Virus record (IMG/VR): IMGVR_UViG_3300037067_009025
Location: 21,950-85,949 of that record
Origin: a virus
Lineage: Duplodnaviria > Caudoviricetes
Strand: one strand, 5' to 3'
Length of the DNA stretch: 64,000 nt
Numbering within the stretch: position 1 is the stretch's first letter; each line of letters begins with the position of its first letter. The notes below the pieces were generated by a model. It had not been told where the DNA came from and did not search any database. It was given only the letters and a program-made list of their open reading frames with translations. Positions 7,568 through 26,013 of the stretch are shown piece after piece. The position numbers and the translations under genes were made by a program.

Positions 7568-7601
7568 AAAAAAGAGGGAGGAGAATAATCTCTCCTCCCT
7601 C
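7568..7601 (-). terminator. Intrinsic terminator after the major capsid gene
   Basis: 11-bp perfect stem (7574-7584/7591-7601) followed by a U6 tract on the minus strand. Confidence 0.8.
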
Positions 7602-7619: not shown

Positions 7620-8555
7620 TTACGAGGTCTTCTGGATAAGAACCAGACCGTTGTAATCCCCATCACCGCTGGTCAGGGCCCATTTGAAATCGAACCAATA
7701 GGTCACAACCAACAGGTCAGCCCGACGGCCAGCTTTGTGCTCCACGTCCGCTTCGATGTTACCGAAGTAGCCCGCAAAGGCACCGCTCATGTTCGCCAGG
7801 ATGGCTTTTTCACCCGTCAAGAGCATTCTCTTGATAACGGGGATACCATGAAGATGGACAACGTTCTTGAGGCCCAGAGCAGGGACATCCTCTAAGTCAT
7901 ACCCGACCATGTTCTTGTCGGCGGACTTTTTCGCAGCAGCCAAGAAGTTCGGAGATGCGAAGATTACGAGGTTTTCCTTGTCTTCCTCTTCACCATAGAC
8001 ACCCAAGCTATTCTGAGCTTCGGCAACGGCATCCAAAATATTCTGGGCGTTGGAAGTCGTATAGCTCACAGGAGTGGCTTCGGCGGTTCCAGAAGCAGAA
8101 AGCACTTCGAGACCATCGGTAATCGTCAACGGATTGGTTGCACCAATGGCAGTAGTATCACCCTTGATGGCAACTTTGTCCGCTGTGCGAGCGATAGCAC
8201 GAGCGATTTTGTTTCTGAAGAGGTTCTCCAACTGAAGCTGCGGATACTGCTTTACCTGTTTCGTCTTCAGGTAAATATAGGTTCCGAGTTCAACGGGGGC
8301 CAAATCAGGAGACTTCACATCGAACGTCATCTCGTTCAGAGTCGTGATGTCCGCAGTATTGTCAATGCGATACACTCTGTCCAGAGATTCCTCGCCGATG
8401 ACAGGCACAGTGCCTTCATTGACGATTTCGATGAACTGACCACGAGACTCGACCATCCGAAGGATGAGCGACTTCTCGACAGCATCGTGAACAATTTTAT
8501 CAACCAACTCTTTAGGAAGATTGGTTGCACTACCAGCAGGAATTAAGAAATCCAT
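7620..8555 (-). CDS. Major capsid protein (HK97-like fold)
   Basis: 311 aa; LP.E.V..IV......S.I.R N-terminus; directly after the prohead protease; strong RBS and own terminator. Confidence 0.8.
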   Translation of the reverse strand: MDFLIPAGSATNLPKELVDKIVHDAVEKSLILRMVESRGQFIEIVNEGTVPVIGEESLDRVYRIDNTADITTLNEMTFDVKSPDLAPVELGTYIYLKTKQVKQYPQLQLENLFRNKIARAIARTADKVAIKGDTTAIGATNPLTITDGLEVLSASGTAEATPVSYTTSNAQNILDAVAEAQNSLGVYGEEEDKENLVIFASPNFLAAAKKSADKNMVGYDLEDVPALGLKNVVHLHGIPVIKRMLLTGEKAILANMSGAFAGYFGNIEADVEHKAGRRADLLVVTYWFDFKWALTSGDGDYNGLVLIQKTS

Positions 8556-13233: not shown

Positions 13234-13361
13234 GGTATCCTCACAATTTGAATCTTACATACTTAAATACGAATAACTGGGTAAAATATCATAGATTTTA
13301 GGCCAATAACCGAGGAAATACTCCCGCATTTTTATGCAAAAATGCAATAGTTAATCTGTGA

Positions 13362-13475
13362 CAGGACTGTATTACAGTCCTGGAACTGATTAACTACATA
13401 CTGGTTACAGACCTGTCCTGTATTACAGAACTGTCCTGTATACAGACTGTATTACAGTTCTGTAACTGTATACAG
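13362..13475. repeat. Cluster of five CTGTA(T)TACAG palindromes
   Basis: CTGTATTACAG at 13367, 13418, 13447; CTGTATACAG at 13436, 13466; the first lies in a 21-bp inverted repeat (13362-13382). Confidence 0.85.
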
Positions 13476-13649
13476 GCCGAGTCCAGGGGGTTTAAGAAAA
13501 GACGGGAAAGTAAACCGTGGGTTGACCAAAACCGCACTAAATAAACTCGGGCCCTCTTTCTCTTCTTAAAGGCTGGACTCACTCCCCTCCGCTTTCAGCA
13601 TTCGCTGAAACTCGGAGCGGGGCTGGAACAGTTCCTGGCTTAACCCTAA

Positions 13650-13711: not shown

Positions 13712-14268
13712 CCAGGGTGCATGAATTTTAAATGAGGTTCCATGCAAAAGCTCTGCCAAACGAGTGGCAAGGCTCGACGAGGAATGGTCTAAAAAGTCTG
13801 CCATCCCGTCTTGGACTCTCACAAATATGGAGCTTTTCTGTGCCAGGAAATTTTCCCAGGATTTTTTGGAAAAGTCCTGGATGGATACCCGAGGTCAGGT
13901 CGCAAATGTCCACCAGCCACAGGACATTTCTCGGGAGTGGACTATTTGTTCATTACTTGGTGAACATTCCAGTTGACAACTTGTTGACGACTTCAAAATT
14001 CCATTACTGGCAAAAGTTGTTCACAAAAATTCCAGTGCACATAGTGGGGCTATGGAAAACAGAGACTTTTCAAACTGGCCAAATTTTTTTCAGTATTTTG
14101 GAACAGGGCGCACCAGTAAGGGAGAGGGTCAGGTCGGGATTTGTCCCGAGCCTGGGACTATCCCTTTCAGGAAATTTGACTTTTCCCAGGGGCTCTGTGG
14201 TTGAGCGTAGAAACAAGTGCCTACTGAAAGAAAACGCTTTCCCAGGTCATGGGGCCCCTTTAAATTAT

Positions 14269-14306
14269 ACTTATATTATAACATATACTTATATATAGAC
14301 TTATAT
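14269..14306. repeat. AT-rich tract with three ACTTATAT repeats
   Basis: ACTTATAT at 14269, 14287, 14299 inside otherwise GC-rich DNA. Confidence 0.6.
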
Positions 14307-14670
14307 AAGGCCCTGCCCTTGAAAGAATAAAAAGCCCATGCTTTCCCAGCCTTTGGGCTGGCCTTGTGCTTTCCTGTTATTCTTTGGCCGTCCCTGGGCT
14401 GGGGCGGGTCACGTTTTGCCCCTGTTATCTTCTGGCCGTGAAGGGGTGAACCTTTGGGACTATTGGCAGACCTTCAGGGATTGCCAGCCTTTGGGGCCTG
14501 GCTGGGGCTGGCTGGTGTTATCCCTGGGCCTTTGGCCTTTGGTGCCAGGTCACGGGGTCAAGGTCAAGGGCTGGCCGTGTGCTGGGCCTATGGCCTGGGC
14601 CTGGGGTGCTGGGCTGCTATCCCCTGGCCTGGCCCTTTAAGCACGTGTTAAAATATCTTTGGCCGTGCCC

Positions 14671-14699
14671 TTGACAATTCAAAAGCGGGGTGCTATATT
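14671..14699 (+). promoter_or_regulatory. Sigma70-type early promoter
   Basis: TTGACA-17-TATATT with TGn. Confidence 0.75.
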
Positions 14700-14723
14700 T
14701 TAATCAGAAGGGAGGGCCGAACG

Positions 14724-14885
14724 ATGAAAAGCCAAAGCGAACAAAGAAGGCAGGAAGCGGAAAGAATACTGGAAGGGATAGAAAAAAGCGGGCGGGTTTA
14801 CTGGCTGGCCGTCTTAGTTAAAAGCGGGGCCCTTCTGGCAAGTGAAGCGGGTTATATGCTTTTGAATTGGGAGGGTTTAAAATGA
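14724..14885 (+). CDS. Small early protein (53 aa, not in ORF track)
   Basis: AGGGAGGG RBS, ATG at 14724; stop overlaps the next start (ATGA). Confidence 0.6.
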   Translation: MKSQSEQRRQEAERILEGIEKSGRVYWLAVLVKSGALLASEAGYMLLNWEGLK

Positions 14886-15103
14886 TTCCATTATTCAAAA
14901 ACACTGAAGAGGCTTTAAAATACGGGGCCAGCATAGCGGGAAACGCTGAAGCCCTGGCAGAACTGAAGGCAGAACGGGCCCGCCTTGTCCTGGAAGGGCG
15001 CAAACTGCAAGAGGCTGAAGACTGGGCGGGAGCCCTGGCCCTGGCAAGCGGTCAAAGTCAATTCACACGGGAAGCCCTGGAAGCTGCGGGGCTTAAAGGA
15101 TAA
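14882..15103 (+). CDS. Small early hypothetical protein
   Basis: TGGGAGGG RBS; start reassigned to MIPLFK. Confidence 0.6.
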   Translation: MIPLFKNTEEALKYGASIAGNAEALAELKAERARLVLEGRKLQEAEDWAGALALASGQSQFTREALEAAGLKG

Positions 15104-15131
15104 ACACACCACAAACAAGGGAGGGTTAAAA

Positions 15132-15473
15132 ATGGAACACGTCAAGCGCATTGCAAACCAAAAAGCACATGAACACGTTTCACGGCGGGAACCGTTCAAA
15201 GGGTCAAACCTTTACGCCGAATATAGAACGGTGAAACAAGATTCTTTCAGGGAGGCAATCAGGGAGGCTTTAGGGGAACCGCTGGAAGTTTACGCCGTCT
15301 TTTCATACGGTGAACACTTTCCCATTTATGCCTTTAAGGCGGGCCAGTGGTTCAGGAATAAGGATAAATACAGCGTGACCACTTCAAAACATCAAAGCCA
15401 GGCCAGGCCCTGGGACGTGTCACACTTTACAGACCTTGACACGGACGGAATAAAAGCGGTTTGCGGTCTTTAA
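15132..15473 (+). CDS. Conserved-looking phage hypothetical protein
   Basis: GGGAGGG RBS; EPFKGSNL, VFSYGEHFPIY, KYSVTTSKHQSQARP motifs. Confidence 0.65.
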   Translation: MEHVKRIANQKAHEHVSRREPFKGSNLYAEYRTVKQDSFREAIREALGEPLEVYAVFSYGEHFPIYAFKAGQWFRNKDKYSVTTSKHQSQARPWDVSHFTDLDTDGIKAVCGL

Positions 15474-15500
15474 CTTTAACCTTTAAAGGGAGGTCTTAAC

Positions 15501-15725
15501 ATGGAAAAAACTTTCAAAGCTGAAACGGTTCAAGTCTGCAAAGTGGCCCGCCGTTTAGGGGTCATTGCCGAAAAGAAAACCCTTTGCCCTGGCTGCGGGA
15601 AAGTAAAACACTATGAAGCCCTGGCCTTTGAACTGCGGGCCCTTGAGGGCAGAATTAAAGAGGTGAACACACCCAAAGCGGACGGGCTGGAATGGTGCCA
15701 GGATTGCCAGGGCGGGAGGGGATAA
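15501..15725 (+). CDS. Small Zn-finger-like early protein
   Basis: AGGGAGG RBS; CPGC...CQDC. Confidence 0.6.
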   Translation: MEKTFKAETVQVCKVARRLGVIAEKKTLCPGCGKVKHYEALAFELRALEGRIKEVNTPKADGLEWCQDCQGGRG

Positions 15726-15726
15726 G

Positions 15727-15921
15727 ATGAAAGAATTCCTTTTCATGCTTTGGCAGATTTTTAAAGTGGGCCTGGTCTGTATAATCTGGGCCCTGGGGCT
15801 GGTAGTCAATGCCTGGGCCCTGGCCCTTTGCGCCCTTGTGGGGATTATAGGCTTAACAGTGGCCTTTTTTGGGTCACTGATTTTTTTCAATATTATCATT
15901 CTTGCAATGGGTTTAAAGTAA
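15727..15921 (+). CDS. Small membrane protein
   Basis: 64 aa, almost entirely hydrophobic; GGGAGGGG RBS. Confidence 0.55.
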   Translation: MKEFLFMLWQIFKVGLVCIIWALGLVVNAWALALCALVGIIGLTVAFFGSLIFFNIIILAMGLK

Positions 15922-15974
15922 ATTGTCATAACTTTGACACGTGTTAAGTCTTAGGACAAAAGGGAGGTCATAAA

Positions 15975-16229
15975 ATGGAACTTTGCACACACGGCAAACC
16001 GATAACGGGCTATTGCCAGCCCTGCGCCCAGGCCATAGACGGCGGGGACAATATGCTTTTAATGGTCAAGATTCGGGAAGTATACGGGAATAAAAGGGTT
16101 TATGTTCAATCCTTCCAGGCTGGGGCTTTAAAGGCTTTGACTGGACGGGAAACCTTGACGGATTCAGATATAAAGGCACTTAAAAGCCTGGGTTATTCCT
16201 TCCAGGTGCTGGGGAATAGTATTTTATAG
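15975..16229 (+). CDS. Small early hypothetical protein
   Basis: AGGGAGG RBS, 84 aa. Confidence 0.6.
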   Translation: MELCTHGKPITGYCQPCAQAIDGGDNMLLMVKIREVYGNKRVYVQSFQAGALKALTGRETLTDSDIKALKSLGYSFQVLGNSIL

Positions 16230-16421
16230 GGTTTTACGGGGCAAGGAATAGGAAAGAATGAGGCGGGGAACACGTCCCGCCCGCATAAACCCAGCCCCTG
16301 GGCTATTCTTTCCAGTCCCCTATAGTCAAATAACCCTTTAAAACCCTGGTTTTCTTTATCCTATATACTGGGGCAAGCTGGGGACTTATTCACGGACTTT
16401 TTAACCTGGGAGGGCTTAACT

Positions 16422-16595
16422 ATGGCAAGGCAATCTTTAACGGAATTCATAAGGGCCAATAGGGCCGAACTTGACGGGGCCATAAAGCGGGCAGTCCCGA
16501 ACATTGGCAGCCTAAACGATTCAGACCGTAAAGACTGGGTTTTAAACGATGAAGGGCTTTACAATTGGGCCAGGTCTGAAGGGGTGAAGGTTTAA
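16422..16595 (+). CDS. Small early protein (57 aa, not in ORF track)
   Basis: CTGGGAGGG RBS; MARQSLTEFIRANRAELD...WVLNDEGLYNWARSEGV. Confidence 0.6.
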   Translation: MARQSLTEFIRANRAELDGAIKRAVPNIGSLNDSDRKDWVLNDEGLYNWARSEGVKV

Positions 16596-16628
16596 CCCTG
16601 GCCGTCTTTTAACAAGGGAGGCTTTACA

Positions 16629-16811
16629 ATGGAAGCGCAAAAAATGACACTGGCAGAAGCCAGGCAGATTTTAGGCAATCGGCCCCGCTGGGAACTTTTG
16701 CAGATAAAGCGGGCCTTGTCCATGCTGGAACTTTTGAACACCCCAGAAGAGGCCCAAAGGCTGGAAGCTGCAAGGCTTTTACTGGGTGCTATGCCTAAGC
16801 CCTGGGCCTAA
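16629..16811 (+). CDS. Small early hypothetical protein
   Basis: AGGGAGG RBS, 60 aa. Confidence 0.6.
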   Translation: MEAQKMTLAEARQILGNRPRWELLQIKRALSMLELLNTPEEAQRLEAARLLLGAMPKPWA

Positions 16812-16847
16812 GCCTGGGGAACCTTTAAACCGTGGGAGGGTCTTTTT

Positions 16848-17084
16848 ATGCGGTCTTTAATCGCTGGGGCCCTTGTGCTGGCCCTGGGCCTGGCCTTCAC
16901 TGGGCCAGCCTGGGCGGGCAAGGGCGGGAAGCTGAAAGCCTGCAATGATTCAAGCGGGCGGGTCTACTACGTGCCAAAAGCTGGGAGCGGGAAGGGGCTT
17001 TACTGGGGCAGCAGTCCGAAGACGGCCCAGCCCCTAAAAGACGGGCAGCGGGTTTATATCATACCAAAGCGGGGCAAGCGGTAA
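16848..17084 (+). CDS. Small exported protein
   Basis: TGGGAGGG RBS; signal peptide ending A-W-A; basic mature part. Confidence 0.55.
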   Translation: MRSLIAGALVLALGLAFTGPAWAGKGGKLKACNDSSGRVYYVPKAGSGKGLYWGSSPKTAQPLKDGQRVYIIPKRGKR

Positions 17085-17257
17085 AGCTGGCCCCTGGCTG
17101 GGAGGGGTGAACATGCGCTATTATGTCCTATTTTATGCGGGCCTTGTGGCCTTCTGGGTCTTCCTGGGCTGGCTGGTCTACGGGGCAGCCCTGCGGGCCG
17201 TGTCCCAGGCAATGGGCCAGGCTGGGGCCATGCTGGGGACTTTTTGAGCGGGTGACC

Positions 17258-17286
17258 TTGACACGCTGGGCCCTGGGTGTTATACT
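17258..17286 (+). promoter_or_regulatory. Sigma70-type promoter
   Basis: TTGACA-17-TATACT with TGn; no convincing ORF for about 740 nt downstream. Confidence 0.75.
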
Positions 17287-17950
17287 TGAAGGGGCGGGGC
17301 CCTGGGTGCCTGGGGTGTGCCTGGCAGCGGAAAGCGTTTTCCTGGGAAGCGTTTTCACGGGGACGGGGTGACTTTGGCCGAACCTTGAAGACGGGCCCCA
17401 GTGCTAAAGTGTCCAGTAAATGTCAAATTGATTTTAAGGGTTCAAACTGAAAATTGCCCCGCTGCAAAAGTGTATCAGTTTAAGGGTGTTTTAGGACTTT
17501 GACGTTTTGGCCGATTTTTCGCTTGTAGATTCAAAAACTGGGGATTTTTCTGGGGAAAATCTGGTATTTTCACAAGTGACCCGAAAACCCTTTGCCCCAG
17601 GTTATTCCAGCGTGTTTTTGCGGGTGTTTTTCGGCCCCTGGCGGGGCCCTGGCGGGCAGCTTTTAAACACCTGGCAGCATATTATAGGATGATGACGGGC
17701 CAAAGGCTGGGACAAAGCCCGTGACATTTAAGGCATAAAATTTTGATAATTTGATGACGTTTTCAGCATAAGGGCGGGCAGAATGCGGGACAAAGGCACG
17801 GACAAAAGGCGGGACAATTCGGGAGGGATTGAACGGTGAAAGCGTTTTCTCAAAAATCCATTCGGGCCAGCCTTCAGCAGAAGAGGTCAAGGGGCCCCAG
17901 AATTCCAGGGCCTGGCCCTGGCAGACTGAAAAATATTTTTTGCCTGGCCC

Positions 17951-17979
17951 TTGTTTTTTGGGCTGGGGTGTGCTATACT
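17951..17979 (+). promoter_or_regulatory. Extended -10 promoter for the AAA/VWA operon
   Basis: TTGTTT-17-TATACT with TGn. Confidence 0.6.
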
Positions 17980-18035
17980 TTATAATGCAATAGGGCAGCA
18001 CGAACAAACAAACCTTAAACCTGGGAGGGTTAAAA

Positions 18036-19031
18036 ATGACGCCGAAAAAATTACAAGAGATTTTAAAAGACGCCGTAAAGCACGGTGAACAATTGCTTAT
18101 CGTGGGCCCGCCTGGCATTGGCAAAACGGATATTGTCAAGGCGGTATGCAAGGACTTAGGGGCCGACATGATTATATCACACCCCGCCGTGTCCGACCCC
18201 ACGGACTACAAGGGTTTACCGTTCAAAGTGTCCGACAATTCACACGCCGAATTTTTGCCATTCGGGGAAACCTGGCGGGCTATTCAAGCGGACAAAGTGA
18301 CATTATGGTTTATTGATGACCTGGGCCAGGCTTCTGAAGCGGTTCAAAAAGCCCTTATGCAATTGCTTTTAGGGCGGAAGTTAAACGGTCACAAGTTAAG
18401 TGACAAAGTGGTTTTTTGCGGGGCCACTAATGACATAGGCCATAGGGCAGGTGTCACGGGACTTTTGGAACCCGTAAAATCCCGCTGGGATTCAATCGTG
18501 AACCTGGAACCGTCACTTGATGACTGGTGCACGTGGGCTTATGGCAATGGGCAGCCTGCGGAATTGATTGCATTCCTGCGGAACTGTCCCGAATTGCTTT
18601 CCCACTTTGAACCGACCAAAGCACTGATAAACCAGCCTTGTCCCAGAACGTGGGCCAGTGTTGGCCGTAGAATTGCCAGGAACCAGCAGGACTTTGACTT
18701 GATTGCTGGGGCCGTGGGGAAGGGTGCAGCCCAGGAACTTTTAGCATTCCTGGAACTGGCAGCAAAGGCCCCGTCCCTGGACGCTATCTTGATGAACCCG
18801 AAGACTGCGCCGATTCCTGAAAAGCCAGCCCTTCTTTATCTTGTGGCTGCGGGTTTGTCCCAGCGTGCTAAGAAGGATAATTTTAATCGTGTCTATCAAT
18901 ACCTTTTGAGGCTTCCCCAGTCATTCAGAACTATGGCAATCAAGGACGCTATCAATCGGGACAATTCCTTGACGGGCACGGACACTTTCACCGCTTATGT
19001 CACGTCTGCGGAAGGCAAAAGCATTTTATAA
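18036..19031 (+). CDS. MoxR/AAA_5-like AAA+ ATPase
   Basis: Walker A GPPGIGKT, Walker B WFIDD, sensor ATN, PCPRTW. Confidence 0.85.
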   Translation: MTPKKLQEILKDAVKHGEQLLIVGPPGIGKTDIVKAVCKDLGADMIISHPAVSDPTDYKGLPFKVSDNSHAEFLPFGETWRAIQADKVTLWFIDDLGQASEAVQKALMQLLLGRKLNGHKLSDKVVFCGATNDIGHRAGVTGLLEPVKSRWDSIVNLEPSLDDWCTWAYGNGQPAELIAFLRNCPELLSHFEPTKALINQPCPRTWASVGRRIARNQQDFDLIAGAVGKGAAQELLAFLELAAKAPSLDAILMNPKTAPIPEKPALLYLVAAGLSQRAKKDNFNRVYQYLLRLPQSFRTMAIKDAINRDNSLTGTDTFTAYVTSAEGKSIL

Positions 19032-19061
19032 ACCGTTTTGAAAACCTGGGAGGGTTTGAAC

Positions 19062-19907
19062 ATGGACAAAATTTTGACACGTGCCGTATTAGTGAAGGTA
19101 TCAATCAGCCAATTCAATCCGAAAAGGCAGGACGGGAAAACCACGGCGGAAGTCCTGGCCGACAAAGGCGCAAAGTCTACCGCTGGGGTGTGGATTAAAA
19201 ACCTGGTAGACCCTAAAGCCCTTGAGGCTATCAACACGCTGGCCCAGGCTGCACGGGCTGAACATTACAGGCTTTCGCTTCCCTGGGCGGATGAAGGCTG
19301 GCGGATTCTTCCCACGGCCATTTATATGAAGTATCAAGAGGCCATGAGGGAAAAACGGACGGGATTTTCCTGGGAGGTTCAAAAATTCCTGGATAAATAT
19401 CCCCAGTATATTGAAGAGGCAAAGGCAGCCTTAAACGGCATGTTTAACCCTGGGGACTATCCGACCCCTGAACAAGTCAAGGGAAAATTCGGAATGAAAA
19501 TTGACGTGGCCCCGCTTCCCTGCGGAAGTGATTTTCGGGTGTCCCTGGGAAGTGATGAACTGGCAGCAATGCAGCAGGATGTTGACCAGCGTGTTAAGGA
19601 AGCCACGGCCCAGGCAGTAAAAGACCTTTGGAACCGCCTGGCCCAGCCAGTAAAAGCAATGGTCAATCGTTTATCGGAACCCGATTCCATTTTTCGGGAT
19701 TCACTGATTGATAATCTGCGGGATATTATTGACCTGGTGCCGTCCCTGAATGTCACGGGTGACCCTGCACTTGACGCCGTGGCCCAGGAATGCAAGGTCA
19801 AACTTTCGGGCTTCAAGGCTGAAGACCTGCGGAAAGATAAAGCCCTGCGGAAGAGTGCAGCGGAAGAGGCGGACGCTATCTTGAAGAAAATGGAGGGCTA
19901 TATCTAA
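19062..19907 (+). CDS. DUF3150-like protein
   Basis: Helical protein between the AAA ATPase and the VWA-metallopeptidase, the usual context for this family; start reassigned to MDKILTR. Confidence 0.6.
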   Translation: MDKILTRAVLVKVSISQFNPKRQDGKTTAEVLADKGAKSTAGVWIKNLVDPKALEAINTLAQAARAEHYRLSLPWADEGWRILPTAIYMKYQEAMREKRTGFSWEVQKFLDKYPQYIEEAKAALNGMFNPGDYPTPEQVKGKFGMKIDVAPLPCGSDFRVSLGSDELAAMQQDVDQRVKEATAQAVKDLWNRLAQPVKAMVNRLSEPDSIFRDSLIDNLRDIIDLVPSLNVTGDPALDAVAQECKVKLSGFKAEDLRKDKALRKSAAEEADAILKKMEGYI

Positions 19908-21139
19908 TGACCCCGACACTTTCAAAAATTGACAAGGCAATGAACACCCTGGTTTTAGACCAGCCCTTTTTTGCCGTGTTGGCAATGCGCCTTGAACAAG
20001 TGGAAACCAAAGAAGTCCCGACCTTTGCCACGGACGGAAAACGTCTTTTAATCAATCCCGATTTTTGCGCTTCATTATCGGACGGGGAAGTTGTGACCGT
20101 CCTGGCCCATGAAGTTTTGCATTGTGCCCTGGGCCATATATGGCGGGCCCCTGCGGGTGCAGACCTTCAGACCTGGAACCTGGCAATTGATAATGAAACG
20201 AACTGGGAACTTGAAAAGGTAAACCGTCAAAATAGGGGTGTCCCGCCCTTCCCGTGGCCGTCCTGCGGGAAAGTCATGGAAGACCGCTTTGAGGGCTGGG
20301 CTGCGGAACGGGTTTATAAAGTCCTGGCAGAAGAGAAGGCCCAGCAAAAGGAAGACCAGCAGGGCCAGCAAGGCCAGGGAGGCGGTAAAGGGCAGCAGCA
20401 GAAGGCGGGAGGCCAGGGGCAGAATAAAGGGAAGGGGCAGCAGGGCCAGGGGCAGCCTGGACAAGGCCAGCAGCAGGGCTTTGGTGACATTATCCCAGTA
20501 AAGAAGGATGACCAGGCCCAGCTTAAACAGGAATGGGAACGGGCCGTTATTCAGGCGGAAAAATGTGGGCGGGAGCGTGGGGATATTCCAGGGGCCGTCA
20601 AGGAATTGATTCAAGAGGTGACCAGCACTAAAGTTGACTGGCGGAATATCCTGCGGGACTTCTTATCTACCACGGCAAAGGAAGACTGGAACTTTGCCCG
20701 ACCGAATGCCCGCTTTGAAGACACTGGCTTTTTAATGCCGTCCCTTTACAATGAACGGGCGGGCCACTTAGTTTTTGCAATTGATACCAGCGGGAGCACG
20801 TCAAGCGAATTGCTGGCCGAATACATAGCGGAAGCCCAGCAGGCCCTTGATGAACTGAACCCAGAAAAATTGACCCTTGTTTATTGTGACGCTAAGATTC
20901 AACACGTCCAGGAATACGAACCAGGGGACAAGATTGAACTGGAAACCTATGGACGGGGCGGGACGGATTTTCGGCCCGTGTTCAATCATTTTAACAAGGC
21001 GGATGAAGCCCCTAAAATCGTGGTTTACTTGACCGACCTGGAAGGGACTTTCCCAAAGGAAGCCCCAGAATATCCCGTCTTATGGGTGACCGAAAACCAC
21101 GGCCAGGAAGTCCCATTCGGGGACTTGATTGAAGTATAA
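19907..21139 (+). CDS. DUF2201-type metallopeptidase plus VWA-like domain protein
   Basis: TFATDG, HEVLH (HExxH), Gln/Gly linker, AIDTSGS MIDAS motif, GRGGTDFRP, YLTD. Confidence 0.85.
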   Translation: MTPTLSKIDKAMNTLVLDQPFFAVLAMRLEQVETKEVPTFATDGKRLLINPDFCASLSDGEVVTVLAHEVLHCALGHIWRAPAGADLQTWNLAIDNETNWELEKVNRQNRGVPPFPWPSCGKVMEDRFEGWAAERVYKVLAEEKAQQKEDQQGQQGQGGGKGQQQKAGGQGQNKGKGQQGQGQPGQGQQQGFGDIIPVKKDDQAQLKQEWERAVIQAEKCGRERGDIPGAVKELIQEVTSTKVDWRNILRDFLSTTAKEDWNFARPNARFEDTGFLMPSLYNERAGHLVFAIDTSGSTSSELLAEYIAEAQQALDELNPEKLTLVYCDAKIQHVQEYEPGDKIELETYGRGGTDFRPVFNHFNKADEAPKIVVYLTDLEGTFPKEAPEYPVLWVTENHGQEVPFGDLIEV

Positions 21140-21363
21140 ACCAGCAGCCAGGGGCCCAGTAAGGGCCCCAGGAATTGGAGGGTTAAAACATGTTAGTCTT
21201 TTCAGGGGATAGAAAATCTTTGACGGTCAAGGCTGGAAAGTTTTTCCAGAAAATTTTTGGCCATGCCTTTATCAAAATTGCTTTATGGGACGGATATAAA
21301 AGCCTTTGTTATTTTGAGGCGGGAACTTTCCGAATTGCCGTCTATTAAAAGGGAGGTGTAAAC

Positions 21364-21555
21364 ATGGCAGACTTTCGGCGTATTGTTAGGAAGGTCTATA
21401 AAACTACCGTGGTTTACAAGCTGGATGTTTTACTGGCTGAAGAAAAACGCTGGGCCCGCAAAGCCACGATTGCCAATACTAAACTGCGGGCAGTCCGAAA
21501 AAAGATAAACACCCTGGCCCAGGAACTGGCGCAAAAGACCGTAAGTGTCCAGTAA
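21364..21555 (+). CDS. Small coiled-coil hypothetical protein
   Basis: AGGGAGGT RBS, 63 aa. Confidence 0.55.
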   Translation: MADFRRIVRKVYKTTVVYKLDVLLAEEKRWARKATIANTKLRAVRKKINTLAQELAQKTVSVQ

Positions 21556-21610
21556 GGGCAGCCCGTGGGAGCGGGTTCAAACTGAAAACTTTTAAGGGAG
21601 GTATCAAACT

Positions 21611-22312
21611 ATGGAACCAATTTTTGAGGAAGTTTTGAAGGGCCATAAAATTGAGATTCATTCAGACGATGACGGTATCAATCCCCGCCATGAATGGGAT
21701 AATATGGGGACAATGGTTTGCTTTCATGGCCGTTATAACCTGGGAGATAAAGACCACGGATTCAAACAAAGCAATTATGATTCCTGGGCGGAACTTCAGA
21801 AGGCCATTATCAGGGAGCACGGGCCTTGTTTGATTGCCCCGCTTTATCTTTATGACCATTCAGGTATCACAATTTCAATGGGTGAATTTTCTTGCAAGTG
21901 GGATTCTGGACAAGTGGGCTTTATCTTTGTCCCGCATTCCAGGATTCGCAAGGAATATTCTTGCAAAAGAATTTCAAAGAAGACCCTGGAACGTGCCAAA
22001 GGGTGCCTGGAAAGTGAAGTCAAGGTATACGATGACTATTTAACGGGAAACGTTTACGGATTCAAAATTTTTGATGACGTGGACGGGGAAAATGAAATTG
22101 ATTCATGCTGGGGATTCTTTGGGGACTATGAAGAAGGGGCCCTGGCTGAAGCCCGTTCAATCGTGCATTCCAGGACGGACACTTTTAGGAATGCCGTTAG
22201 AGAAAAACTGCGGGAAGTGGAAAATCAAAAGAAGGCAGAACTGGCGGACAAGCTGGACGCTGCACTTGAACACCAGCAGGAACTTAACAAGGAAGTTTTA
22301 CAGGCAGCTTAA
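21611..22312 (+). CDS. Conserved-looking phage/ICE hypothetical protein
   Basis: NPRHEWDNMG, PLYLYDHSG, WDSGQVG, DSCWGFFG motifs; AGGGAGGT RBS. Confidence 0.65.
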   Translation: MEPIFEEVLKGHKIEIHSDDDGINPRHEWDNMGTMVCFHGRYNLGDKDHGFKQSNYDSWAELQKAIIREHGPCLIAPLYLYDHSGITISMGEFSCKWDSGQVGFIFVPHSRIRKEYSCKRISKKTLERAKGCLESEVKVYDDYLTGNVYGFKIFDDVDGENEIDSCWGFFGDYEEGALAEARSIVHSRTDTFRNAVREKLREVENQKKAELADKLDAALEHQQELNKEVLQAA

Positions 22313-22368
22313 TTCTAAAATACGGCCAGGGTGTCCAGTAAAGGCCAGGTCACAAAAGGCGGTTCAAA

Positions 22369-22530
22369 ATGAAATATAAAATCCAGTATAATGTTGGTAA
22401 AGTAAAATATCTTGTTAGTTTTTCAGACGGAACAAAAAGGCACAAGGACGGAAGCGAATTTTGGGATATTAAATGTTTTAAGTCAAAGGATAAAATGAAT
22501 AAGTTTATCCTGGGTTTAAATAAGCAATAA
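22369..22530 (+). CDS. Small hypothetical protein (53 aa, not in ORF track)
   Basis: MKYKIQYNVGKVKYLVSFSDGTKRHKDGSEFWDI; fills an intergenic gap. Confidence 0.55.
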   Translation: MKYKIQYNVGKVKYLVSFSDGTKRHKDGSEFWDIKCFKSKDKMNKFILGLNKQ

Positions 22531-22547
22531 CTTGAAAGGTTAAAATC

Positions 22548-22736
22548 ATGCTACAATTAGTCAAGGTGAATGCCATAAAACCCGAATACAGAATTGAGGG
22601 CTTATCCGCTGAACAAGTGCTAAGGATTCATTGCGCTTTAAAGGCCGTGCCACAAAAGCCCCTGGAAGTGGAAGTCATGGTGAACTGTTTGAACCAGGAC
22701 ATAAACCGTTTGAACAAGTCTGAAGGGAGGGAATAA
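22548..22736 (+). CDS. Hypothetical protein
   Basis: 62 aa in operon orientation. Confidence 0.5.
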   Translation: MLQLVKVNAIKPEYRIEGLSAEQVLRIHCALKAVPQKPLEVEVMVNCLNQDINRLNKSEGRE

Positions 22737-22737
22737 C

Positions 22738-22989
22738 ATGTGCTTTGAAATGGGACATAGTGCAGGATGTTTGTGTAATAATTCGGGACGTGAAAAGTCA
22801 AAAGCCCAGGGATATAATCCAGTATCCGAACATGGAAAACTGCGGTTAATTCCAGCCAATGAGCCCAGGAATATTTGCTGGAACTGCGGAAAACTTTTTT
22901 CGGAAGACCCAAAACATTTTCTTCCAAAGGAAGTGGGACAAAAACAATATTTATCCTGTAATCATTGTGGAAAGGTGAACCACTTATAA
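22738..22989 (+). CDS. Zn-ribbon protein
   Basis: AGGGAGGG RBS; CWNC...CNHC. Confidence 0.55.
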   Translation: MCFEMGHSAGCLCNNSGREKSKAQGYNPVSEHGKLRLIPANEPRNICWNCGKLFSEDPKHFLPKEVGQKQYLSCNHCGKVNHL

Positions 22990-23197
22990 ATTTCTTTAAA
23001 CACGGAGGGGCCACTATGACCGCCACGGCGAAAAAGGATATTGTTTCAGAATTGAAAGTTGTTTCCTTGCAGATTGAGTCTATTGAGGCCCAGCTTAAAA
23101 ATACGTTCGACCTGCATAAGAAAACAGAACTGAAGGAACAATTGAAAAACAAGTGGGCCCTGGTTGACAATTTGCTGGATAAATATCCGCCCAGGAC

Positions 23198-23226
23198 TTG
23201 ACAAAAGTCTGGAAATATGGTATACT
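23198..23226 (+). promoter_or_regulatory. Sigma70-type promoter
   Basis: TTGACA-17-TATACT with TGn. Confidence 0.8.
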
Positions 23227-23625
23227 TATCTTAACGGAGGAACGAATGAATAGTCAAGACCGACAACGAATTCAAGAAATGATTGATGCAGCCAAAGCAG
23301 GTTCAGCGCAAGTCATTAAGCTGGATGAATTCGGGGTTTTGATGTTCAGGAATATTTACAATGAAGCCACGATTGCGGGATTGACCATAACGATTCTTGA
23401 ACGTGGAAAGATTTTTCAAATTGAGCGGACATAGGGAGGTTAATATGACCTTAAAAGACTTGATAACAAAAAGCAATTTAAGTAAAGCAGACCTGGAAAA
23501 GGAAATTCTTTTCAGCAATGATGAAGAATTAAATAATCTTCATTCAGAAGCGCAAATTGCCGAACTGGGTAACACTGGAAAATTGGTTATCTATCCCTTA
23601 ACAATGAGCAGAACGGAAATTTAAG

Positions 23626-23850
23626 ATGAAGACCCGCTTTCGTGCCAGCATATATCTGGATGTTTTCATTGAAGGGGATAAACCCCTTGAAGAAGCACGG
23701 GCGGAAGCCACGGCACAAGTCAATGAACTGGTGCAATCAATCTCAGAAGTTGGCTTCAGGGAAGACTTGAACTATAGCAATCCTTATGTGGGAGGCGTGG
23801 CCCACTATGAACCAAAAAATTTGCTGAAGCCTCTGGACAAGGACATTTAA
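23626..23850 (+). CDS. Hypothetical protein
   Basis: 74 aa; one of several short ORFs between 23.0 and 24.2 kb. Confidence 0.5.
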   Translation: MKTRFRASIYLDVFIEGDKPLEEARAEATAQVNELVQSISEVGFREDLNYSNPYVGGVAHYEPKNLLKPLDKDI

Positions 23851-24218
23851 AATGTTAAGGATTAAATTGGATATTACAGACAAGGATGAACACAAACTTA
23901 TAACACACCTTGAACACGTGCAATGGGCCATTGCTGGCGGAGAAAAGGCTGGCCCAGGCTGGGAACTGGAAGGCGAAAATGAAAGTCAAGACGATTCTAA
24001 AAAAACTTAGGACTGAAAATCTTTTCGGAAAACCCGTTAAGATTCTTAAAGTGTCCAGTAAAGCCCCTAAAGAATTAGAGGGTAAAACTGGAACTTTAAC
24101 AAACCCATTTGCGGGATTCGAGGTTGAGGGTATTGGAATATTCCTGGATAACAATGAGCCCGATGTTTGCAATCTGGGCCTGGAAGATGATATTGAAATA
24201 ATTGGTTAATTTGTCCGC

Positions 24219-24272
24219 AGCGGGGCCTCCTCCCTAACCCAGTCTCCTCCCAGTCTGGGTTTTGGCCCCGCT
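24219..24272 (+). ncRNA. Candidate small structured RNA with two exposed anti-SD motifs
   Basis: 9-bp stem 24219-24227/24264-24272; bulge UCCUCCCU; 7-bp stem 24236-24242/24255-24261; apical loop containing CCUCCC; intergenic. Confidence 0.5.
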
Positions 24273-24425
24273 AATATTTTAATGACCAGTAATCACGCAC
24301 ACGGAGAACAGGTTTAAATGGAAAAGGAACTTAACAATAGATGTATTGAATGTGGTTGCGTATTAGATGAGGGAGAATATGACCTTTGCGAAGCATGTAG
24401 AGAAAGACTGGATAATGACTAACCC

Positions 24426-24454
24426 TTGACAAAATTAGAAAAGTATGCTATAAT
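24426..24454 (+). promoter_or_regulatory. Sigma70-type promoter
   Basis: TTGACA-17-TATAAT with TGn. Confidence 0.8.
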
Positions 24455-24465
24455 TAAAGGGCTTT

Positions 24466-24684
24466 ATGAACCTTGCGGACATGCTGAAAGAGATTAGATT
24501 TTTTGGAGTGAAGCCCACGCTTGATTCTATCGAGCAGGTAAAATCTCCCAGGTTAAGGTTAAAATTGAGAAGGCTATTTGAGGAAGCCTTTCATATTTTG
24601 AGAGTTGGAGATTATCGTTATCAGAATATCACGTGGCCCGATACTACCAGGCCCAAAGGAGAAAATCAAAATGGACAAGATTGA
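24466..24684 (+). CDS. Hypothetical protein
   Basis: 72 aa immediately after the promoter. Confidence 0.5.
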   Translation: MNLADMLKEIRFFGVKPTLDSIEQVKSPRLRLKLRRLFEEAFHILRVGDYRYQNITWPDTTRPKGENQNGQD

Positions 24685-25114
24685 AACATCCTACAAAGGT
24701 TACAAAATTGAACACGATATTGATTATGATAAAAAAGAGAAGTGGGTTTTAAAGGATGACGATGACACTTCTGTTTATGAACATGCGTCCCTGGCTGCCG
24801 TGAAAGAATATGTGGACAGGTTGAACAAAAAAGGATTCAAGACGTTCACGATTCTTTACGATTCTGGATGGGGAAACAATAAAGGATATATTCGTCATAC
24901 GGTCACATCCATTGATGACCAGGGTGATTATTGGATTAAAAATGATGAAGGCAGGCGTCAAAAGATTCGTCCTGGGAATGCCGTGGTAGATTCTCCCGAG
25001 AATGCAACACTCATTCAGGAGATTCGAGCGGTTGAGGCCGAAGAGGATAAGCTCCAAAAAAGACGCCATGCTTTGGAGAAAAAGCTCAAGAGACACGGAA
25101 AGAACGATGACTAA
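24671..25114 (+). CDS. Hypothetical protein
   Basis: AAGGAG RBS; start reassigned to MDKIETSY. Confidence 0.6.
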   Translation: MDKIETSYKGYKIEHDIDYDKKEKWVLKDDDDTSVYEHASLAAVKEYVDRLNKKGFKTFTILYDSGWGNNKGYIRHTVTSIDDQGDYWIKNDEGRRQKIRPGNAVVDSPENATLIQEIRAVEAEEDKLQKRRHALEKKLKRHGKNDD

Positions 25115-25379
25115 GTGGAACTACTACGTCAACGATTTTGAGTTTGAATGGCCCGATGGTGACGGTGGGTATACTTATCTGAAAGCAAATTTTCAGGTGA
25201 ATGCCTGCCGTTATCTCTTTGGTGATGACGCCGATGGAAACCGTGGCGTCTATGTCACAGAGAGAGAACTTGTAAACATTGAAGTCAAAGATGACACGGG
25301 CAATCCTATTGAACTTAAACCAGGCATGGAAGAACATCTTGCCGATAGAGTCAGAGAAGAAGGCAGCGATTTAGAATAA
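25107..25379 (+). CDS. Acidic hypothetical protein
   Basis: Start reassigned to MTKWNYY; overlaps the upstream stop. Confidence 0.55.
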   Translation: MTKWNYYVNDFEFEWPDGDGGYTYLKANFQVNACRYLFGDDADGNRGVYVTERELVNIEVKDDTGNPIELKPGMEEHLADRVREEGSDLE

Positions 25380-25394
25380 CACGGGAGGGAGTTA

Positions 25395-25733
25395 ATGAAT
25401 AGGCCCCTCAGAAATCCCGAATTGACCAAAAAAGAGCGAGTCGCTCAAAAACGTCAAGCCCTCACCCAGGAACTGTATACGGTCTTTACCCGTTCATACG
25501 AAATGGATAGGGCCTGGGGTGTGCCTCAAAGAAAAGCATTTGAAAAAGCCTTTCAGCTTCTGAACAAACGAGTAGATGAGTTGAATAAGCAGAAGCCCCA
25601 GGAATCTTCCTTTGTTATCGGTTGTCGTGGGGAAGTGAAAGACCTGGTTCTTAAACGTGTCGCAGAGCTTGAAGGACAGGTAAACAAACATGACGGAAAG
25701 AAAACAGCCAAAATACACTCACATAGAAATTAA
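25395..25733 (+). CDS. Hypothetical protein
   Basis: GGGAGGGG RBS, 112 aa. Confidence 0.55.
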   Translation: MNRPLRNPELTKKERVAQKRQALTQELYTVFTRSYEMDRAWGVPQRKAFEKAFQLLNKRVDELNKQKPQESSFVIGCRGEVKDLVLKRVAELEGQVNKHDGKKTAKIHSHRN

Positions 25734-26013
25734 GTTGTGGGTGTTTCGTTTTTCATTTTACAAATTAAACCATAAATGGACAATCAGATTTGAAATGTCC
25801 AGCGGGTGGGAATAATATGTGTTTACTGAAAGACCATTCAAAAACTTGTAAGTGTCATTTGACCACAAAATTTAAGGAAAAGAAAACTATCTGTTTTGTT
25901 TGCAAGAAAAGTGTGGATAAGGTTCTTGATTTGTGTGCTACCAGTAAAGACCTATGTAGCATTGAGTGTGAACGAACGTTTTGGTTGGATATTCTTTATT
26001 AAGGAGCCTCTTC

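Follow-up and report, generated by a model that had tools for sequence, protein, structure and literature searches.

An uncultured 86-kb phage carries, at the end of one of its operons, a stable hairpin that exposes two C-rich motifs complementary to a uniform class of ribosome-binding sites upstream. Our working model, which we favour tentatively, is that this is an operon-end hairpin with a selected anti-Shine-Dalgarno (anti-SD) function, the exposed motifs pairing with GGGAGG-type sites. We think that the display of the motifs is selected and not incidental. The hairpin closes a block of 17 genes with one strong type of ribosome-binding site in common; if the model is true, a simple RNA would control a whole class of early messages, in the role that the protein RegB has in T4. 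If the motifs work as they do in NfeR1 and CcsR, it would be a minimal version of a CCUCCUCCC regulator, carried by a phage and made up of one hairpin; if it is just a terminator, it is ordinary. The window, by which we mean the whole 64,000-nt stretch that was analysed, comprises bases 21950-85949 of an IMG/VR virus contig of 85,949 bp with ~95% completeness. Groundwater, landfill and freshwater sites are among those where the phage is present.

RNAfold predicts one dominant structure for the hairpin (Table 1), with a dG of -32.1 kcal/mol and a z-score of -4.65, and none of 200 shuffled sequences folds as well; the 54-nt GC-stem hairpin described in the first-pass annotation is thus real. Eight of the nine pairs in the lower stem (24219-24227 with 24264-24272) are G-C. 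The stretch above this stem, originally described as an 8-nt bulge, does contain the unpaired UCCUCCCU (24228-24235), but it is one side of an 8x2 internal loop, the facing UU (24262-24263) having been omitted. The upper part consists of 7 bp (24236-24242 with 24255-24261), a U.U mismatch, two further pairs and an apical hexaloop, CCUCCC (24246-24251). The fold is stable in contexts from 90 nt to 1.5 kb, in all of which 24228-24235 and 24246-24251 are unpaired with p ~1.0, in agreement with the earlier prediction that both C-rich motifs are single-stranded. The hairpin is among the most stable 70-nt segments, and no other non-coding segment folds as strongly where the plus strand has 40% GC; the minus-strand fold of the same 54 nt is equally stable. 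The tail, AAUAUUUU, begins with AA and contains five U in its first 8 nt; the A/U tail has a run of four consecutive U and is found on the plus strand only. The tail itself satisfies the tail rule of our terminator scan, from which the hairpin is absent because the scan allows loops of 3-8 nt.

Table 1. Features of the hairpin locus and its candidate targets (window coordinates)
Feature	Position	Strand	Remark
Composite hairpin: 9-bp GC clamp, 8x2 internal loop, 7-bp upper stem + U.U + 2 bp, hexaloop	24219-24272	+	RNAfold
Motif 1, CCUCCUCCC, exact cuckoo/ar14 anti-SD 9-mer	24226-24234	+	First two C in lower stem, remainder in internal loop
Motif 2, UCUCCUCCC, 8/9 match to cuckoo motif	24243-24251	+	CCUCCC forms the apical hexaloop
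A/U-only tail AAUAUUUUAAU, weak U tract	24273-24283	+	Abuts stem
Sigma70-type promoter of the five-gene operon ending at the hairpin	23198-23226	+	TTGACA-17-TGgTATACT match
76-aa gene, without Pfam or PHROG family; homologues found	23979-24209	+	Stop codon 24207-24209, 9 nt before hairpin
Bipartite motif copy CCAGTAA-N18/19-GGTTNAAANTG, one of seven plus-strand copies	24286-24324	+	Begins 13 nt past hairpin
34-aa CxxC...CxxC zinc-ribbon gene	24318-24422	+	Judged a real gene
Sigma70-type promoter of the next operon, perfect (12/12)	24426-24454	+	
Candidate targets: 17 genes with GGGAGG, 4 genes with GGAGG, 5-10 nt before start	14710-23439	+	Co-extensive with CTC-free block

Within the window, genes lie on the minus strand to the left of ~14 kb, where the capsid and a glycan cassette are encoded, and on the plus strand from 14.7 kb on. 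The promoter at 23198, which had been placed upstream of the hairpin, is present and belongs to the type TTGACA-17-TGnTATACT, whose sigma70-type members occur genome-wide and are not confined to the early part. From it runs a five-gene operon (genes 23246, 23445, 23626, 23852 and 23979-24209) with the hairpin at its end, and the distance to the stop codon of the 76-aa gene places the hairpin in the 3' UTR of that gene. The zinc-ribbon gene downstream being real, the non-coding spacer is limited to 24210-24317. No sigma70-type promoter for a separate hairpin transcript was found; the nearest promoter-like element upstream is the bipartite-motif copy at 24055, within the 76-aa gene, which is a candidate internal promoter. 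This motif, CCAGTAA-N18/19-GGTTNAAANTG(A), may be a promoter or a protein site; its plus-strand copies lie at 17413, 21156, 21549, 22335, 24055, 24286 and 30499, its second box overlaps the start codon in three copies, two copies are inside genes, and a GGGGCCC/GGGCCCC hairpin directly after a stop codon has the first box of the 21156 copy as its loop.

Both exposed stretches contain the 8-mer CUCCUCCC, starting at 24227 and 24244. With respect to CCUCCUCCC, motif 1 is the exact 9-mer with its first two C paired, and motif 2, UCUCCUCCC, has its CU paired to AG, both CCUCCC cores being unpaired with p = 1.0. With both strands of the 86-kb genome counted, the 8-mer CTCCTCCC is found five times, twice in the hairpin, twice in a palindromic capsid terminator and once in coding sequence. 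That terminator, on the minus strand at 7574-7601 after gene 7620-8555, has the perfectly palindromic arms GAGGGAGGAGA / UCUCCUCCCUC and then U6, and over 9 nt its 5' arm is fully complementary to the apical UCUCCUCCC of the hairpin. IMG/VR was scanned for pairs of CTCCTCCC spaced 5-30 nt apart, and the pairs were filtered for those that are non-coding and stable with both motifs unpaired. The scan gave 155 occurrences, 151 in long open frames and 4 non-coding; of these 4, the only two that are stable and leave both motifs unpaired are true cuckoo RNAs. The same filter retains the hairpin in the window.

The two motifs also carry the trinucleotide CTC, which is otherwise nearly missing from this part of the genome. 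On the plus strand between 14194 and 23741 there is one CTC (at 17849) in 9,548 nt, where 70-100 would be expected, and its complement GAG is just 2-3-fold low; two more (23742 and 23831) lie between this block and the hairpin, which itself has four (24227, 24230, 24244 and 24247). The counts agree with the earlier observation of four CTC some 480 nt past a 9.5-kb region with a single one. By our own arithmetic, four or more CTC in 54 nt have P ~0.002 at the window-wide rate (633 in 64 kb) and a far lower P at the local rate. The hairpin holds 4 of the 8 CTC of 14194-24992, all within the two motifs, which indicates that the CTC of the motifs have been kept against the local trend.

The candidate targets are as uniform as the motifs. 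In 17 genes between 14.7 and 23.5 kb a GGGAGG is found 5-9 nt before the ATG (GTG for the gene at 17836), compared with one gene that has a GGGAGG-type site past 23.5 kb, and the C-rich motifs of the hairpin are perfect complements of these sites, as had been proposed. The individual sites named earlier all exist at this distance from an ATG, AGGGAGG at 14709, 15118, 15487, 15961, 16615, 21350, 21595, 22724 and 23433 and CTGGGAGG at 16406, 17098, 18021 and 19046. Additional complementarity in the flanks (the U after motif 1 and the AG after motif 2) is not significant, since three of the four possible bases fit some subclass of sites and the AG is predicted to be base-paired. A specific long target has no support, the longest complementarity being 8-9 nt of generic Shine-Dalgarno sequence; for the same reason, the suggestion that the RNA globally silences early or host translation is an extrapolation, the longest match to a start region being of that length and kind. 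The related idea of a temporal early shut-off fits poorly because the element is co-transcribed with its supposed targets from promoter 23198.

In its working, the hairpin would be most like an anti-SD RNA of the cuckoo type. The motif CCUCCUCCC defines the loops of the alphaproteobacterial cuckoo/ar14/CcsR small RNAs, which have 2 to 4 adjacent hairpins of 24-50 nt each, without nesting (PMC4615179). For cuckoo/ar14 RNAs, occlusion of ribosome-binding sites through this motif has been shown by experiment: in reporter assays, seed mutants of NfeR1 established that ~8 nt of pairing to the start region suffices to silence ntrB and that the three motifs act redundantly (PMC10746234). RNase E processes CcsR1-4 out of the 3' UTR of a 71-aa gene (PMC8034643), and the hairpin described here lies 9 nt after a 76-aa gene. 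Likeness to this family (NfeR1, CcsR1-4; RF02344, RF02791) extends to the repetition in one RNA of a CCUCCUCCC-type motif whose CCUCCC core is unpaired here, and to GC-rich stems, which are variable in the family. However, the family has 2-4 adjacent hairpins with loops of 9-27 nt, whereas here a single nested 54-nt hairpin has an internal and an apical loop; and the family is found in an alphaproteobacterial CIN1 context beside a DUF1127 gene, whereas the present hairpin is phage-borne, beside a gene without a Pfam family. The Rfam models RF02344 (ar14) and RF02791 (CcsR1) gave no match on 24000-24500, either at the gathering score or at E <= 10, whereas a positive control (L113, 3342-3444) matched both with E 4e-7 and 9e-7. 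With its nested fold, no Rfam match and a neighbour other than DUF1127, the hairpin is not a member of the family. The positive control and a second locus (L116, 241-284), both on IMG/VR virus contigs, are true two-hairpin RNAs of the cuckoo/CcsR type (ar14 E 4e-7, below the gathering score), indicating that CCUCCUCCC small RNAs are carried on, or beside, some (pro)phages.

Features are also shared with other known systems. Unpaired loops with UCCC, complementary to Shine-Dalgarno sequences, are found in the C-rich-loop small RNAs of Bacillota (PMC4615179), among them hairpins 7/13/14 of S. aureus RNAIII, RsaE/RoxS and LhrC. These are independent genes with their own promoters, and the hairpin here has no sequence or model similarity to them. 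The likeness to T4 RegB lies in a uniform class of early ribosome-binding sites that can be targeted as a class (GGGAGG contains GGAG); RegB, however, is a protein nuclease that shuts off early mRNAs at GGAG, whereas the candidate effector here is an RNA. No RegB-like gene was found among the early proteins searched against Pfam or among the ten flanking genes searched against PHROGs.

In the proposed mechanism, the 9-bp GC clamp and the A/U tail would stop, or at least punctuate, transcription of the operon from promoter 23198 and would protect its 3' end, while the upper part would hold two single-stranded copies of the cuckoo-type anti-SD motif, (C/U)CUCCUCCC. The RNA may act as the 3' UTR of the mRNA or as a fragment trimmed from it, like CcsR. 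Most likely it would pair over 7-9 nt with GGGAGG-type sites of phage early genes, and possibly of host genes, and such pairing would keep 30S subunits off and lower translation. The geometry of the fold is awkward for this. The motif in the internal loop faces only UU, and we infer that a 7-bp intermolecular helix would be hard to fit into the 8x2 loop, so that full pairing would be limited without melting of the stem; the hexaloop, too, is small for a 6-bp helix between loop and target. A simple trans-silencer is further argued against by the single copy of the hairpin, by its co-transcription with the targets and by complementarity that is generic and only 7-9 nt long. These points are not decisive, since 8 nt suffices for NfeR1.

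Comparison with relatives yields little evidence on the hairpin. Two short contigs (L020 and L021) are identical to the window, and a strain variant from a freshwater metagenome (run X3) is identical over the hairpin and the whole upstream kilobase, to position 24294. These sequences are uninformative on selection of the hairpin because the entire upstream kilobase is identical too. From 24295 on, the X3 variant differs by ~4% or more (24295-24570), giving a sharp mosaic joint 23 nt past the hairpin. Among the listed differences are a deletion of 4 nt, for which a new ATG in frame compensates, and conservative changes of the CxxC codons; so far as these differences allow, the retained frame shows that the zinc-ribbon gene of 34 aa is genuine. 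In the variant, the bipartite motif is not conserved in its second box, in which 24313 T>C departs from the consensus.

The only syntenic relative, L005 (PolA 64% identical), has homologues of both flanking genes. Its 111-nt spacer, which cannot be aligned to that of the window, has a 9-bp GC-rich closing stem ~10 nt after the stop codon and folds with -40 kcal/mol (z -2.5); it holds two of the five CCTCCC of the locus (P ~3e-4 by our own arithmetic) and has no U tract. Of the pattern proposed earlier, conserved loops on co-varying stems, no covariation is found, and conservation does not extend past L005, where a positional analogue in an unalignable spacer also has two CCUCCC. A covariance model of the hairpin had no match in 484 kb of relatives, and the more distant L022 and L024, which have relatives of the upstream gene, have no hairpin. 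The 23000-26000 segment had no blastn match among GenBank phages, and in IMG/VR neither the exact hairpin core nor PolA alone was found. A PolA alignment yielded 12 loci, which have 43-54% identity or less and all lack the flanking genes; the contigs of the closer PolA relatives P0003, P0005 and P0006 stop short of the region, and P0002 has no contig on record. The downstream 72-aa protein was found, among 5.8 billion proteins, in this phage and L005 only, and scans of IMG/VR and JGI metagenomes gave no further copy. When the host was sought through relatives of RecA or PolA, the matches were all uncultured phage contigs.

It is possible, if rather doubtful, that the hairpin is no more than an intrinsic terminator, or a stabiliser of the 3' end, that separates two transcription units, with the C-rich loops as incidental filler. 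The position of the hairpin 9 nt after a stop codon, with AAUAUUUUAAU behind it, makes a non-canonical terminator or 3' stabiliser plausible as well. The resemblance is to Rho-independent terminators, including long imperfect phage ones such as T7 T-phi, which have a GC-rich stem after a stop codon and an A/U tail at an operon end. Consistent with this are the location at an operon end, the 9-bp GC clamp, an all-A/U tail with U4 on the plus strand only, and the copy of the bipartite motif followed by a perfect promoter downstream. The capsid terminator at 7574-7601 on the minus strand is also made of these same words, GAGGGAGGAGA and UCUCCUCCCUC, from which it follows that this phage puts SD-like and anti-SD-like words in terminators. 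However, 54 nt with an 8x2 internal loop is atypical, the clear terminators of the phage being compact with 6-7 U, compared with only four consecutive U here; the tail starts with AA, and termination may consequently be weak. It is very unlikely that filler would give two exact 8-mers, both unpaired, in a region poor in CTC, and the analogue in L005 keeps CCUCCC without a U tract and cannot terminate in this way.

The depletion of CTC gives rise to a different reading, which we consider unlikely, in which the hairpin is a site for a CUC reader, i.e. a nuclease or binding protein acting on the mRNA-sense strand that has purged the early region, with the hairpin being a processing site, a decoy or a mimic of the 16S tail. 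The block has one CTC against 70-100 expected with GAG only 2-3-fold low, and 4 of the 8 CTC in 10.8 kb are located in the hairpin loops. The purge is specific to CTC, which is missing in every context, while UCCC, CCCU and CCUU are enriched 1.7-3.3-fold in the block; for these reasons, avoidance of words resembling the anti-SD, including avoidance of self-pairing between the mRNA and its GGGAGG sites, was rejected as the cause, and a factor that reads the CTC trinucleotide itself is implied. Deazaguanine or Z-base chemistry as the origin is without support, the genome having no TGT/DpdA and no PurZ. Precedents exist in ACA-free mRNAs, which escape MazF, and in a phage pseudo-ToxI RNA, which neutralises ToxN. 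Nevertheless, a literature search returned no CUC-specific factor of this kind, and no recognisable one is encoded among the early genes. The block spans DNA of 50% and 41% GC and is co-extensive with the class of GGGAGG ribosome-binding sites, and it ends mid-operon, 480 nt before the hairpin, which counts against this reading. It also starts 475 nt ahead of the first recognisable promoter, covering 14196-14670, which hints at a cause at the level of DNA, and the relatives L003, L005, G002 and G003 are without the purge.

An extended form of this idea is quite unlikely: the early mRNAs would be CUC-free to evade a CUC reader (an abortive-infection RNase of the host, or a shut-off RNase or binding protein of the phage), and the hairpin, whose copy of the 16S anti-SD tail exposes four CUC, would be the one dedicated decoy, titrator or processing switch, timing the transition from an early programme driven by GGGAGG to the later genes. 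As the only CUC cluster in ~10.8 kb nearly free of CUC, the hairpin offers a natural handle for finding a CUC reader in this system.

It is very unlikely that the hairpin is a processing signal of the RNase III type, as between T7 early genes, in which cleavage of a helix of ~21 steps, interrupted by an internal loop of unequal sides, would detach the upstream message and make it more stable. The 3' strand does provide 9+2+7+1+2 = 21 positions in a near-coaxial helix, and the location is intercistronic in a polycistronic early unit. T7 RNase III sites, however, are not known to be as asymmetric as the 8x2 loop, no further hairpins of this kind lie between the early genes of the phage, and the duplicated motif would be left unexplained. 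Least credible is an element acting as DNA (a protein-binding palindrome or recombination boundary) or as a minus-strand RNA with GGA loops that sponges CsrA. In its favour are the sharp divergence of the strain variant from 24295, 23 nt past the hairpin, and the equal stability of the minus-strand fold. Phages, however, often have mosaic joints at gene borders, and a CsrA sponge has many GGA sites whereas the hairpin is present in a single copy; the CsrA/RsmA sponge considered in the first-pass annotation is without support since the genes here are all on the plus strand, no good minus-strand promoter is nearby and the A/U tail is found on the plus strand only.

Several other features of the window were observed. 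Among ~30 early proteins searched against Pfam and PHROGs, informative matches were limited to a MoxR-type AAA, a DUF2201 VWA/metallopeptidase and a UDG-PolA. Consecutive genes at 18036-21139, within the CTC-free block, encode a MoxR-like AAA ATPase, a DUF3150-like protein and a DUF2201 metallopeptidase/VWA protein; apart from UDG-PolA, no further early protein matched a family. The window has no tRNA genes, and a tRNA-like stretch in L022 was not confirmed by ARAGORN. A long, near-perfect hairpin (-32 kcal/mol) at 25155-25217 lies within the coding region of gene 25107-25379. At 17258 a strong sigma70-type promoter is followed by ~550 nt without a convincing ORF (17258-17830), with very stable hairpins at 17291-17360, and this segment may be a non-coding RNA or a leader. 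The segments 13348-13476 and 14250-14640 comprise dense inverted repeats of the TTACAGnnCTGT type in the divergent region and, after them, AT-rich repeats resembling TATACTTATAT and a 300-nt GC-rich, A-poor and strongly folding stretch without a convincing gene; this part may serve as an origin or for control, or it may mark a genome end.
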